Of a DNA stretch of 57,402 nucleotides, positions 16,422 to 20,432 are shown one piece after another. This stretch comes from a virus. Lineage: Duplodnaviria; Caudoviricetes. Location of the stretch: positions 1-57,402 of the IMG/VR virus record IMGVR_UViG_3300045744_000033; one strand, 5' to 3'. The first letter of the stretch is position 1; the number at the start of each line of letters is the position of its first letter. The notes under the pieces are model-generated. The model searched no databases. It was not told where the DNA came from and worked only from the letters and a program-made list of their open reading frames with translations. Position numbers and translations under genes: made by a program.

Positions 16422-16871
16422 ATGAGCGTGCTCATCCCCCTGCTCTCCCAGCTCGTCGCCGTCCTGGCGGCGGCCGGGCTCTTCTCGTGGCTCCTGCTGG
16501 CGGGCGGCGACGTCGTCGTCGGCTGGATCCGCCGGACCTCCTCCAACGCCCCGAAGCCAGGCAGCTTCAGCTGGTCCTACGCCTTCGCCTTCGTCCGGAC
16601 GACCCTCGGCTGGAAGGACGCCGTCGCCATGGCGTCCGCGGTGGCCCTCACCTTCCTCGGGGTCCTCGGCGCCAGCCTGGCCAAGCAGTCGGGCGGGGAC
16701 GTCGCCAGCTACGTGCTGCTCTTCAAGCTCGCGGCGATCGCCGCGCTGGCCACCTTCTCGGCCCTGGCCGCCAAGCAGAACATCGAGCTGCTGGGCGACA
16801 TCAAGGCCAAGCTCCTGGGCCAGCCCTCGTCGCGCCCCAAGCCGGCGGACGGAATCCCGGGCTTCCCCTAG
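16422..16871 (+). CDS. Holin-like multi-pass membrane protein ending in ADGIPGFP
   Basis: SD AAGGAGG; about 3 hydrophobic segments with a basic C tail; in lysis cassette; last 8 aa identical to the pro-peptide at 20328-20432. Confidence 0.7.
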   Translation: MSVLIPLLSQLVAVLAAAGLFSWLLLAGGDVVVGWIRRTSSNAPKPGSFSWSYAFAFVRTTLGWKDAVAMASAVALTFLGVLGASLAKQSGGDVASYVLLFKLAAIAALATFSALAAKQNIELLGDIKAKLLGQPSSRPKPADGIPGFP

Positions 16872-16970
16872 ACCTGCGTTCGACGGCCGCCGCTCGCTCC
16901 GGCCCACTCGAGCGAGCACCGCCCGAACCGGCGGACCACGCGCGACCAGCGCACCGACAAGGAGGCAGCA

Positions 16971-17447
16971 ATGCCAAACCACACGTCCTACCCGCGCCCG
17001 GCCGATATGTCGTGGGAGTTCTTCGACAGCTACGTCAAGGGGCTCCTGCACCCGGAGGGAATGGAGACCGCGCCCGACTACCCGCACGTCGACCTGGTCG
17101 AGTACGGCGGGCGTCACTCCGATCGCCTCAAGGTCGACGGCCATGAGGTCCCCTACATCGAGATGACCGACTGGCCGATCGTCTTCGACGGCGAGGCCTC
17201 GCCGGAGCTGACCGAGGAGTTCGCTCGCCAGCTCGACGACAAGGCTCCCGAGCTGGCGGCGGCCGTTCGCCGGGGCGAGCGGATCCGCAACCTGCTCTGT
17301 GACGATCGCTTCGGGATCACCGCACCGGAGTCCGAGATCAGGCGCTGGGCCTGGTTCCTGGCCAACGCGATGGCGGTGAGCGCCGGCTACACCTCGCACG
17401 GCAAGGGTTCCCGGCCGATCAACCGGCACGGCCCGAGCCGGACCTAG
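16971..17447 (+). CDS. Hypothetical protein
   Basis: SD AAGGAGG; good codon usage; followed by a terminator. Confidence 0.75.
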   Translation: MPNHTSYPRPADMSWEFFDSYVKGLLHPEGMETAPDYPHVDLVEYGGRHSDRLKVDGHEVPYIEMTDWPIVFDGEASPELTEEFARQLDDKAPELAAAVRRGERIRNLLCDDRFGITAPESEIRRWAWFLANAMAVSAGYTSHGKGSRPINRHGPSRT

Positions 17448-17477
17448 GCTCCGACCCCTCTCTCCTCCGTTCGACCG

Positions 17478-17508
17478 CCCTCGCCGGGTAACCGGCGGGG
17501 GCTCTTTT
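17478..17508 (+). terminator. Rho-independent terminator
   Basis: ccctcgccgg-gtaa-ccggcggggg followed by ctctttt. Confidence 0.7.
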
Positions 17509-17733
17509 GTGTTCCTCAGCTTTCCGGCGGAAAGAGGCGCGCCGCTCGCGGCTCGACCCCCTCGAGGCGGACGAGCACCGCCTCCGTCAGGCGGCCGATC
17601 TCTTCCAGCTCGCGTGCCGTCGCCTCGTCGCCGGCGGCCTTGGCCTCGCGGTAGGCCCGTCGCAGCGCGCTGACGGCGCTGATCAGCGGGAGGCGCCGGA
17701 TCCGGCTGCGGCTCAGGTGGCCAACCCGGCACG

Positions 17734-18000
17734 TCAGAGGGTGCGGTGTCTACGCAGCCGGACGCGGGCCTTCTCATTCGACGGCGGCCGTCCCGGCCGT
17801 CGAGGGATCCGCGCGAAGGCCTCGACATCGGCCTGCAGCATTGCCCAGTCTCTCCCCATGTTCCGAGCCGACGGGAGGCGCCGCTCGGCGGGTGGCCGCT
17901 CCTGGTCGCGCTCGATGTGCTCCCGCATCGTGTCTGGAGTCACGCCGACGATCGCCGCCGCCTCGCTCACGCTGATGATCCGGTCGATGATGCGTCTCAC
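17734..18000 (-). CDS. Small HTH DNA-binding protein (MerR/Xis-like)
   Basis: ISVSEAAAIVGVTPDTMR HTH and GRDWAM wing; GTG start chosen. Confidence 0.7.
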   Translation of the reverse strand: MRRIIDRIISVSEAAAIVGVTPDTMREHIERDQERPPAERRLPSARNMGRDWAMLQADVEAFARIPRRPGRPPSNEKARVRLRRHRTL

Positions 18001-18047
18001 TCTCCCCACATAGTACACGCATTATCCCCGCACGCGGGGGAGTTTCG

Positions 18048-18056
18048 TGCTATACT
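18048..18056 (+). promoter_or_regulatory. Extended -10 promoter for the tRNA
   Basis: TGc-TATACT 15 nt upstream of the tRNA 5' end. Confidence 0.6.
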
Positions 18057-18071
18057 CAGCGCAGCGAAGGC

Positions 18072-18143
18072 GGGCTGGTAGCTCAAAGGGAGAGCAGGAG
18101 CCTTAGAAACTCCAAGATGCGGGTTCGACCCCCGTCCAGTCCA
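18072..18143 (+). tRNA. tRNA with anticodon TAG (Leu) but a short variable loop and G3:U70/A73
   Basis: Cloverleaf GGGCTGG/CCAGTCC, D stem GCTC/GAGC, anticodon loop CTTAGAA, T arm GCGGG-TTCGACC-CCCGT; CCA not encoded. Confidence 0.85.
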
Positions 18144-18427: not shown

Positions 18428-18523
18428 CCCTCCGCGCCCCGATCAGGCTCGCGGCTCTGCGCGAAGTGCGCGGGCGGCTCGGTCGACCAGCGGCCGGCGC
18501 CGCGGCGGGGAGTCGCGTGACGC

Positions 18524-18832
18524 TCAGCTCGTCTTGAGGCCCAGCGCGGAGAAGACGGCGTACTGAATGACTCCGGCCGCTAGGAAGATCGCGACGCTCG
18601 TCGCGATCTTCACCGCGACCGGCCAGCGCGTGAACCAGACGAGGACGATCCCGAGGATCCAGCAGAAGATGGACGCGACGACGACGTGCCACCAGGCAGC
18701 GATGTACAGCGGATCGACCCGCGCCCAGGCGACTCCGTTCCACCGCCACCTCCCGTCAGCGGAGACGGCCGGCTGCCACACGCTACCGTCCCAGTACCAG
18801 GCGCCGTCGCCGGAGAGCTGGCCTGGTTGCAC
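18524..18832 (-). CDS. Small membrane protein with WYWDG/WRWNG repeats and two TM helices
   Basis: Two S-x-DG-x-W-x-W-(D/N)G repeats then hydrophobic helices; lies between the two tRNA halves. Confidence 0.7.
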   Translation of the reverse strand: MQPGQLSGDGAWYWDGSVWQPAVSADGRWRWNGVAWARVDPLYIAAWWHVVVASIFCWILGIVLVWFTRWPVAVKIATSVAIFLAAGVIQYAVFSALGLKTS

Positions 18833-18913
18833 GGGCCGACTCTAGTTGGCCCGTGGTGGCTCCGGATACCCGTAGCTCGATGCTCATCTGTTGTCAGTCG
18901 CTGTTGTCGAAGC

Positions 18914-18972
18914 TGGCGGAGGGAGGGAGATTTGAACTCCCGAGGGCTCGATACCCTGGCTGTTTTCAAGAC
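18914..18972 (-). other. 3' half of tRNA-Ser(TGA): probable attP core
   Basis: Minus strand CTTGAAA anticodon loop, long variable arm, GTTCAAATC, ends CTCCGCCA; 100 bp from the integrase stop; TGTTGTC repeats at 18889, 18902 and 19071 could be arm sites. Confidence 0.8.
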
Positions 18973-19075
18973 GGGAGCCGAGCGATCTTGAGGTCGCGCC
19001 GTGAGCTTGGAAAAGGCCGCCAGGCCGCGACAACCGCGTCAGTCAACGACCACTCCCTGATGTCTTTTTTTGTTG

Positions 19076-20203
19076 TCAGGGCTCGGTCTGAAGGGCCCGG
19101 TCGATGGCGTCTACCGCTTCCCACGCGACCTCCGGCGCCACGTGCTGGTAGATGCGCAGCGTGGTCGTGATGTCGGCGTGGCGGAGGATCTGCTGGCCGA
19201 CGCGGGGGTGGATGCCGGCCGCGGTCAGGAAGGAGGCCGCCGTATGCCGGGTGGCGTCATAGAGCTTGATCCGGGGCAGGCCTGCGGCGGCCACCAGGCG
19301 GTGGAAGCGGTAGCGGAACTTGTCGAGCGTGAGGGGTTCCCCGTGCGCGTCCATGAAGACGAGATCGCCCCGGCGCTTGCGGCCGGCGCGCAGCAGCTCG
19401 GCCGCCTGCCGGGCCTTGTGCGCGCGCAGCGCCTCGAGGACGATGCTGGGCAGGGGCAGCGTCGCCCGGCTCCCCGCCGTCTTGACCGGGCCCAGGGTGG
19501 GCGCTCGGCCCGGCTCGCGGACGAGCTGGCGCCGGATGGTGAGGTGGCCGGCCTCGAGGTCGATGTCTGACCAGCTGAGACCCAGCGTCTCCGAGGGGCG
19601 GAGCCCGAGGCCGATCCCGACCATGTAGGCCGCGCGCAGCGGCTCGTCCGCCAGGACCTGGATGAACCGGCGGGCCTCGGGCGCGGTCCAGAAGCCGGCC
19701 TCACGGCGCGGGACGCGCGGAGGCCGGGCGAGCGCGGCGACGTTGCGGCCGATCAGCTCCTCGCGCATGGCGTCGTTGAGCGCGTTCCGGAGGACCTCCC
19801 GGACCTGCTGCGCAGTCCGCGCGCCGGCGGAGCGCTGCTTGCGGTTGACCAGCTCCTGGACCTGGCCGACGCTCAGCTCGGCGAGCTTGATCGTCCCCAG
19901 GCTCGGGATCACGTGGCGTTCGAGCACGCCGCGGTACACGCGAACCGTCTTCGGCGCGTGGCGGCCCAGCTCCTCGAGGCCGGTCATCCACCGCTCCAGG
20001 TATGCGGCCAGCGATGGCGTCCTCGTCCGAACCGGGAGGCCCTTGCGACGACTCCGCACGAGCTCGGCGAGCCTGACCGCGACCTCGTCGCGGGTCTTCC
20101 CGTAGATCCACTTCCGGCCCTTGCCCGGACCGAGGCTCAGCGCGGCGGCCCAGCGCCCGTCCTTGCGCCTGACGACCGTGCCCTCGCCGCGACCGCGCGC
20201 CAT
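19076..20203 (-). CDS. int: Tyrosine integrase
   Basis: MARGRGEGTV...DGRW N-terminal arm-binding domain; GLRPSE, YDATRHT, LRHAD and IYQH catalytic motifs. Confidence 0.95.
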   Translation of the reverse strand: MARGRGEGTVVRRKDGRWAAALSLGPGKGRKWIYGKTRDEVAVRLAELVRSRRKGLPVRTRTPSLAAYLERWMTGLEELGRHAPKTVRVYRGVLERHVIPSLGTIKLAELSVGQVQELVNRKQRSAGARTAQQVREVLRNALNDAMREELIGRNVAALARPPRVPRREAGFWTAPEARRFIQVLADEPLRAAYMVGIGLGLRPSETLGLSWSDIDLEAGHLTIRRQLVREPGRAPTLGPVKTAGSRATLPLPSIVLEALRAHKARQAAELLRAGRKRRGDLVFMDAHGEPLTLDKFRYRFHRLVAAAGLPRIKLYDATRHTAASFLTAAGIHPRVGQQILRHADITTTLRIYQHVAPEVAWEAVDAIDRALQTEP

Positions 20204-20230
20204 GGCGGGCACGATTCTAGCCTCCGAGCG

Positions 20231-20249
20231 GTTGACAACGGTTGTCAAC
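20231..20249. promoter_or_regulatory. Perfect 9-1-9 palindrome, candidate operator
   Basis: GTTGACAAC-G-GTTGTCAAC between the divergent int and pro-peptide genes. Confidence 0.7.
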
Positions 20250-20327
20250 TGGATCGTCGGCGCGGTTGACAGAGCGCCTCGTCGGGCGAACACTGGCGGC
20301 ACTCACCGCTTCACCTGGAGGTGCGCC

Positions 20328-20432
20328 ATGCGCAAGATCCGTGTCCTCGCCCTCGCGCTCGGCCTCAGCGGCTTCGCGATCGTGATGTCGACCGCCGCGG
20401 TGTTCGCCGACGGCATCCCGGGCTTCCCCTAG
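20328..20432 (+). CDS. Putative secreted signalling pro-peptide (34 aa; predicted mature DGIPGFP)
   Basis: SD GGAGG; MRKIR + hydrophobic core + AVFA signal peptidase I site, then 7 residues; adjacent to an HTH-TPR gene. Confidence 0.8.
   Translation: MRKIRVLALALGLSGFAIVMSTAAVFADGIPGFP

Follow-up and report, generated by a model that had tools for sequence, protein, structure and literature searches.

The stretch of DNA analysed here (hereafter the window) is the whole of the IMG/VR virus record IMGVR_UViG_3300045744_000033, 57,402 base pairs (bp) with direct terminal repeats, a completeness rating of 100% and a G+C content of about 70%, and is a complete temperate soil phage whose host is probably a member of the Dormibacterota. 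The penultimate gene of its late operon encodes a 149-amino-acid (aa) holin-like membrane protein. Beyond the terminator that closes the operon lie, in order, an Xis-like helix-turn-helix (HTH) gene, a tRNA gene, a tyrosine integrase gene, a palindrome, a 34-aa open reading frame (ORF) that resembles a signalling propeptide, and a gene for a putative receptor with an XRE-type HTH and tetratricopeptide repeats (TPR) (Table 1). We found that the holin-like protein and the propeptide end in the same eight residues, ADGIPGFP, directly followed by a stop codon. That a lysis-block protein carries a copy of the predicted ligand suggests that phage communication is tied to lysis in a way not described before.

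The shared ADGIPGFP-stop repeat

The holin-like gene closes with gcg gac gga atc ccg ggc ttc ccc tag and the propeptide gene with gcc gac ggc atc ccg ggc ttc ccc tag; the two copies are identical at 25/27 nucleotides (nt), and both differences are synonymous third-position changes (Ala GCG/GCC and Gly GGA/GGC). A repeat finder stretches the pair to 30 nt at 90% identity (family D13). Within the window the 24-nt core has exactly two occurrences, and it has matches in 0/100 dinucleotide shuffles; the six 30-nt blocks flanking the copies agree at 5-10 of 30 positions, compared with a window background mean of 8.7. Moreover, a comparison of the 875 stop-to-stop frames that reach 30 aa or more on either strand (all six frames) gave no other pair with the last 7 or 8 residues in common, and both ORFs are called genes in the protein collection (P0003 for the holin-like protein, P0130 for the propeptide). 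The first-pass annotation had reported these shared ends, the two synonymous differences and the unrelated flanks, all of which are borne out. Its further argument, that the synonymous differences point to selection on the peptide, stands only in part: two random single-base changes would both be synonymous with a chance of about 6%, so that the case from this genome is weak, and it gains weight from a homologue, P0004, that keeps ADGIPGFP beside a diverged linker (see below).

The repeat runs from one codon before the predicted mature peptide to at most 3 nt past the stop codon. A recombination scar should have boundaries and substitutions that are indifferent to the reading frame, and neither is the case here; because the boundaries are those of a functional peptide unit, a chance scar would not be expected to give such a coincidence. 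A third partial repeat (22520-22543, 83% match), antisense inside a minus-strand ORF (22243-23592), was judged to be a chance match in a 70% G+C genome. That ORF appears CI-like by eye, and its portion 22243-22785 has no NCBIfam or PHROG match.

Misassembly, the technical explanation that had been raised at the outset, is unlikely. A separately assembled 8222-bp contig, present in two runs, reproduces positions 16300-20600 with 0 differences, and in two further runs each copy is bridged by separate contigs; the four runs possibly all come from the source sample and are separate assemblies, not independent samples. The contigs examined from these runs showed no joint at which the sequence separating the two copies is lost. 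The few low-depth joints listed have 21-nt sides and are probably from other organisms.

The tail within the holin-like protein family

An exhaustive HMMER search of 1.84 billion representatives with the 149-aa protein returned only six relatives, P0004 (71% identical), P0125 (50%) and P0126-P0129 (about 35%), which are 141-171 aa long and have three hydrophobic segments in common. The ADGIPGFP end is found in the window protein and P0004 only; P0125 ends in ...KIATT, and P0126-P0129 have a common basic tail, GQSxGQxAR.... Because these other members of the family end differently, the peptide tail is a derived, lineage-specific replacement and not a family feature. Between P0004 and the window protein the tail is identical at 8/8 residues and the eight linker columns before it at 1/8, and by our own arithmetic the chance of 8/8 at 71% overall identity is about 0.065. 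Taken together with the value of about 0.06 for the synonymous differences and with the repeat boundaries, this speaks more for constraint on the peptide as the end of the holin-like protein than for an arbitrary scar.

Hydropathy places the hydrophobic segments of the window protein at about residues 3-36, 68-86 and 98-116, which correspond to three predicted transmembrane (TM) segments, with Lys/Arg counts of 0, 5, 1 and 5 in the N-terminus, loop 1, loop 2 and C-tail, respectively, and 3 Asp/Glu in the C-tail. The protein is predicted to be N-out/C-in, which would put the tail in the cytoplasm and hence in the same compartment as the receptor. In the AlphaFold2 (AF2) model, which has a predicted local distance difference test (pLDDT) score of 68.5, helices span residues 4-39, 64-90 and 94-131, and residues 137-149 score below 50. 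The tail would thus appear to be disordered and carried on a Pro/Ser/Gly linker, resembling a displayed short linear motif. A predicted tail that is both cytoplasmic and disordered is what two readings in the first-pass annotation require, namely that the tail is a tethered ligand of a receptor acting as antiholin, or that expression of the membrane protein titrates or switches the receptor.

Holin, the name under which the protein was first described, is a putative assignment. We found no match to it in Pfam, PHROGs or NCBIfam, an Atlas search gave scores of at most 0.79 and none of at least 0.8, and Foldseek against BFVD gave 0 matches at E ≤0.001, where non-significant rows named holin were not counted as evidence; the protein does not belong to a described holin sequence or fold family. 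It does share with class I holins its small size, three TM segments and a charged, predicted-cytoplasmic C-terminal domain, and its gene lies two ORFs (1.1 kb) past a weakly assigned endolysin-like gene. A second membrane protein, of 160 aa and with no Pfam, PHROG or NCBIfam match, adjoins the endolysin-like gene and is an equally placed holin candidate. 'Holin-like' is therefore a fair label for the 149-aa protein by its size, predicted topology, charged tail and position in the late operon, and no more.

The propeptide and its HTH-TPR receptor

When species-representative genomes were scanned with the receptor, 40 loci with an identity of 40-47% came up, and 28 carry Dormibacterota-type titles. 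In 37/40 of these host loci the receptor gene is preceded, at a distance of about 110 nt, by an ORF of 30-32 aa that starts with MRK..., continues with a hydrophobic core and A-x-A, and ends in xxIGPTP, at times followed by K or R; the remaining 3/40, which lack the propeptide ORF, are N-terminally shorter receptor paralogues. The 25 host loci inspected for it have a TTGACA-N-TGTCAA palindrome ahead of the propeptide, and in the 21 inspected for a stem-loop one abuts the receptor start codon; the window has both. As judged from this homology, the phage cassette is a diverged copy of the host cassette, with the peptide DGIPGFP in place of xxIGPTP, and the 34-aa ORF is a real signalling-type propeptide, in agreement with its earlier assignment as a signalling propeptide beside an HTH-TPR receptor.

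Additional support comes from closer relatives. The propeptide homologue P0131 is 79% identical to that of the window, with 7 differences that all fall in the first 19 residues, the signal sequence, and with the last 15 residues kept. Locus L046 (1573 bp) belongs to the receptor clade closest to the window receptor (P0006, P0007 and their relatives, which are 57-64% identical among themselves and 50% to the window receptor), and its propeptide ends in DGIPPFP-stop. Because P0131 keeps the mature peptide and this sister clade has so similar an end, the DGIPGFP-type peptide is in all appearance a conserved ligand. Among the host genomes the first two residues of the predicted mature peptide differ (GG, DG, GS, DT, DV, DN, GP, DW, DF, DY and others), a variation that looks like that of pherotypes.

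In the window the stem-loop (20475-20496) reads CGGCGGG-loop-CCCGCCG and in most hosts GGCGGT-loop-ACCGCC, a compensatory change. It may control receptor translation, and its position together with homology to the host proteins places the receptor start at GTG 20496; the alternatives are 20559, chosen by the gene caller, and TTG 20457, which gives the longest ORF. The candidate operator upstream of the propeptide gene is the genome's only TTGAC-N5-9-GTCAA site. The phage palindrome is near-identical to the host version (e.g. L007), and phage and host receptors may bind each other's operators but read different peptides, which would allow prophage-host cross-regulation. We found no second operator-like palindrome in the whole genome, and none near the lysis genes. 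Any link to lysis would on this ground more likely lie at the protein level than in transcription.

The receptor matches generic Pfam families alone, HTH_3 and TPR (TPR_12 and others). Its AF2 model (pLDDT 86) has an HTH and a TPR superhelix of about nine helix pairs, and a Foldseek search with this model gave an LGN/Pins TPR as best match (E 4e-11), Rap-Phr (6t46) at E 1.4e-6 and also 8jal, a TPR protein reading a C-terminal degron, at 14-24% identity among the matches listed. A profile search of the PDB gave Rap (E 5e-6) over part of the TPR and PlcR (E 2e-3) over the HTH only, and no AimR. By sequence the receptor is not a member of the Rap, NprR, PlcR, PrgX, Rgg or AimR families. It does, however, have the TPR-type superhelix with N-terminal HTH of an RRNPP receptor, and an adjacent exported small ORF is conserved with it (in 37/40 loci, the window, P0131 and L046). 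The pair would therefore be expected, on sequence and modelled fold, to work like an RRNPP system while falling outside the described receptor families. Among the candidates scored, 154 relatives of the receptor were found at E ≤1e-3, many of them named as Dormibacteraeota or Chloroflexi proteins from metagenome-assembled genomes. These data point to an RRNPP-like family in Dormibacterota, a phylum without a described one among the literature searched, where no paper combines RRNPP and Dormibacterota. In the passages searched of the RRNPP_detector paper (PMC10075063), RRNPP systems are presented as a Bacillota feature and 'holin' is mentioned 0 times.

Searches for further examples

Viral contigs gave no match for the holin-like protein, the receptor or the DGIPGFP-stop pattern, nor for alignments of distant holin-like proteins, the receptor clade or the receptor family. 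In metagenome contigs, alignment A3 gave no match and the receptor-clade alignment gave three loci, of which L046 is relevant and L047 and L048 are 26% partial TPR matches. GenBank phages gave no blastn match to positions 14001-22000, and tblastn with the holin-like protein and with the receptor likewise had no match there. A profile of the holin-like protein had matches in 0/5 receptor-bearing genomes; those in 3/401 genomes of the phylum sample (E 1e-4 to 3e-3, in frames of 425-652 aa) were taken as spurious, and the pattern DGIP[G/P]FP-stop occurred in 0/401. Among titles and abstract openings in the literature searched, we found no paper describing a link between a signal peptide and a holin, which agrees with the initial statement that no system with such a peptide-lysis protein link is described.

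Genomic context

The features discussed here are collected in Table 1. The ORF between the two membrane-protein genes has paired His-rich motifs by eye, reminiscent of HNH-type nucleases, and no Pfam, PHROG or NCBIfam match; the 158-aa product of the final late gene has no family match. The tRNA gene, although called as tRNA-Leu, lacks the long variable arm expected of a tRNA-Leu.

Table 1. Positions of the genes and sequence elements discussed in the text, in window coordinates.
Feature	Position	Strand	Remarks
Large terminase	50439-51881	+	start of late operon, which crosses the record ends
Tape-measure gene	7078-9888	+	late operon
Endolysin-like gene (weak assignment)	14221-15279	+	Pfam Rv2525c_GlyHyd-like E 7e-4 (below cut-off); PHROG 291 endolysin E 8e-5
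160-aa protein, hydrophobic C-terminal segment	15284-15766	+	adjoins endolysin-like gene; alternative holin candidate
Unassigned lysis-block ORF, flanked by the two membrane-protein genes	15766-16278	+	
Holin-like gene, 149 aa	16422-16871	+	ATG 16422; AGGAGG ribosome-binding site
Repeat copy 1, ADGIPGFP + TAG	16845-16871	+	3' end of holin-like gene
Final late-operon gene, 158 aa	16971-17447	+	between holin-like gene and strong terminator
Intrinsic terminator, strong (11-bp stem + T run)	17477-17502	+	closes late operon one gene past holin-like gene
tRNA, 72 nt, anticodon TAG	18072-18143	+	ARAGORN call tRNA-Leu
Tyrosine integrase	19076-20203	-	Pfam Phage_integrase E 5e-20; between the two repeat copies
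Palindromic operator candidate GTTGACAACGGTTGTCAAC	20231-20249		between int and propeptide gene
Propeptide gene, 34 aa, predicted mature peptide DGIPGFP	20328-20432	+	ATG 20328; GGAGG ribosome-binding site; Sec-type signal peptide
Repeat copy 2, ADGIPGFP + TAG	20406-20432	+	3' end of propeptide gene; Ala at -1 of predicted signal-peptidase site
XRE-HTH + TPR receptor, 464 aa like host proteins	20496-21890	+	GTG 20496 by host homology

How the tail might act

We regard a function for the tail as plausible. The underlying observation is real, does not look like a chance match in the sequences compared, and holds in the single relative that could be compared. In our preferred reading, which we hold tentatively, selection would keep the ADGIPGFP tail as a ligand tethered to the membrane, where it engages the peptide groove of the receptor. 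The ancestral C-terminal tail of the holin-like protein has been replaced by a flexible linker and an exact copy of the peptide with a free C-terminus, and on this reading the new tail would occupy the groove of the cytoplasmic receptor and so couple late expression and receptor state. Such coupling could take two forms, in that the abundant tail may sequester the receptor at the membrane or the receptor may load onto the holin-like protein and shift its firing time; in both, imported free peptide would compete with the tail. A dimeric receptor could also cluster or cap tails and in this way shift the firing time. The solved structures most similar to the receptor model, TPR superhelices of the LGN/Pins type, take up extended stretches of larger proteins in their groove, which argues for a tethered ligand. 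What we infer here is receptor-tail binding, the direction of control and the holin function. By analogy with the usual abundances of such proteins, titration of the receptor by the tail would be easier than a block of the protein by the receptor. We think it quite unlikely that the receptor is a peptide-competed regulator of the holin-like protein, one that docks on its cytoplasmic tails, alters the timing of lesion formation and is displaced by free peptide.

Several points weigh against a tail that engages the receptor. Holins are usually far more abundant than receptors or regulators, and receptors so scarce argue against an effective antiholin role; a clear adaptive logic is also wanting for titrating a regulator late, in a cell about to lyse. 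Binding between receptor and tail is hypothesised, and tolerance of an N-terminally extended ligand is presumed; a complex prediction of receptor residues 70-443 with the last 40 residues of the holin-like protein gave a score of 0.01 (mark 0.32), which speaks neither for nor against binding. The predicted topology is drawn from hydropathy and the positive-inside rule alone, and the holin identity is itself unproven given the family, fold and neighbourhood results above. Statistical support for selection on the tail appears modest, at about 0.06 and 0.065 from two sequences, and gene conversion (concerted evolution) could mimic selection. P0004 and P0131 lie on contigs of 2208 bp and 1019 bp, respectively, and may come from different genomes. 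There is also no parallel elsewhere: no second copy of the local peptide was found within 10 kb of the 40 host loci, IGPTP-stop in five host genomes occurs at the propeptide only (found in 3 of the 5), and in phi3T the mature arbitrium peptide followed by stop occurs once, with no second copy. Two other matches to the IGPTP pattern in host genomes end in TGG and not in a stop codon, and were set aside. As far as seen in these 40 loci, five genomes and phi3T, the tail would be a phage-specific innovation.

The tail could instead be a second, late and abundant precursor of the signal, clipped at lysis or earlier by cytoplasmic proteolysis, such that neighbours take up DGIPGFP-containing peptides and the signal reports both early infections and completed lytic bursts. 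What the sequences say for selection on the peptide and on its free C-terminus would serve this explanation equally, as would a disordered tail on a Pro/Ser/Lys/Arg linker that proteases could reach, and the strong ribosome-binding site and late operon should make the product abundant. Moreover, the Ala preceding the propeptide cleavage site is kept in both holin-like proteins, and a lysis-coupled signal fits an arbitrium-style logic with no new binding mode needed. However, the propeptide is freed at an A-x-A site beside a hydrophobic core, whereas the tail, which is predicted to lie in the cytoplasm, lacks these surroundings, and a further protease of the right specificity would be required. 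No analogous second precursor was found in the five host genomes or phi3T either. We consider a signal released from the tail rather unlikely, although it is the main rival to a tethered ligand.

Somewhat less probable still, and in our view unlikely, is a neutral relic. Here a short illegitimate recombination or a template switch would have joined the last part of the propeptide gene to the 3' end of the holin-like gene, where the tail is tolerated without having a function, and the copies would remain alike through recency or occasional gene conversion. Direct repeats 3.5 kb apart in a mosaic region with int, xis and attP are what such an event could leave; the selection statistics are weak and come from two genomes, C-terminal tails vary naturally in the holin-like family, and the lack of precedent in the host loci, host genomes and phi3T is as expected of an accident. 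Yet the repeat boundaries match the peptide unit with flanks at background and both differences synonymous, and the tail has survived 29% protein divergence beside a linker that is 1/8 identical. A 27-nt tract is besides a poor substrate for repeated conversion, and no deletion joint between the repeats appears in the contigs examined. We judge it very unlikely that the repeat serves a third party, be it a C-terminus reader such as a host protease, chaperone or peptide-handling protein, or a factor for which the 24-27 nt with their CCCGGG palindrome are a DNA site. The motif does occur exactly twice, flanking the integration module, and free C-terminal motifs are common recognition tags; but the differences fall at synonymous positions only, no candidate third factor was found, and L046 keeps the peptide with several third positions and the stop codon changed, which argues for constraint at the protein level.

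Comparison with known systems

A TPR groove that binds a short motif on a larger protein, as the tethered-ligand reading supposes, is known from Hop-EEVD, PEX5-PTS1, the APPBP2 C-degron and LGN/Pins-NuMA/Insc. These systems are eukaryotic and have other functions, and likeness at the level of fold leaves the ligand of the window receptor unshown. On the side of the membrane protein, the class I holins of the lambda S type are likewise small and three-TM, with an N-out/C-in topology (predicted for the window protein), a charged cytoplasmic C-terminal domain and a place in the late lysis block, and the C-terminal domain of lambda S influences lysis timing. The window protein differs in having no dual-start motif and no sequence or fold match to described holins. 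A ligand of RRNPP type inside an unrelated membrane-targeted protein has a counterpart in the enterococcal sex pheromones (cCF10 and cAD1, read by PrgX/TraA), which are parts of lipoprotein signal sequences at the N-terminus, set free by intramembrane proteolysis and then exported. In the window, by contrast, the peptide is on a C-terminal, predicted cytoplasmic tail and duplicates a dedicated propeptide of the same genome.

In overall design the pair resembles arbitrium (AimP-AimR) of SPbeta-like Bacillus phages, which also joins a secreted propeptide, whose C-terminal end is the mature peptide, with a cytoplasmic HTH-TPR receptor in the lysogeny-control region of a phage. However, in the window the propeptide gene lies upstream of the receptor gene, the cassette is homologous to a Dormibacterota-type chromosomal cassette and not to AimR, and the peptide is also the tail of a late membrane protein. 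To our knowledge, phage peptide communication of the arbitrium kind has been described in Bacillota phages only; the tail aside, the cassette would extend this peptide-receptor architecture to Dormibacterota and one phage of theirs. Arbitrium steers the lysis-lysogeny decision via transcription, whereas here a late membrane protein in the lysis block bears the signal ligand itself. If the tail is functional, the communication system would address the lysis machinery directly or lysing cells would emit signal. In either case viruses would tie the sensing of their population to the last stage of infection in a new way, and the eight-residue tail offers a clean experimental handle.

In concept, a receptor acting on the holin-like protein would resemble T4 lysis inhibition, where the antiholin RI binds holin T (PMC8385771 and PMC11413866, in the portions available) and a holin-binding protein tunes lysis timing to phage density, the binding being hypothesised in our case. 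In T4 the signal is superinfection sensed in the periplasm, with no diffusible peptide and no TPR receptor, and we found no homology between it and the window system. If the receptor does regulate the holin-like protein, lysis timing and the lysogeny decision would both be set by phage-phage communication. The window would then encode an equivalent of T4 lysis inhibition that works through a peptide, in a phage whose probable host belongs to an uncultured phylum from soil.

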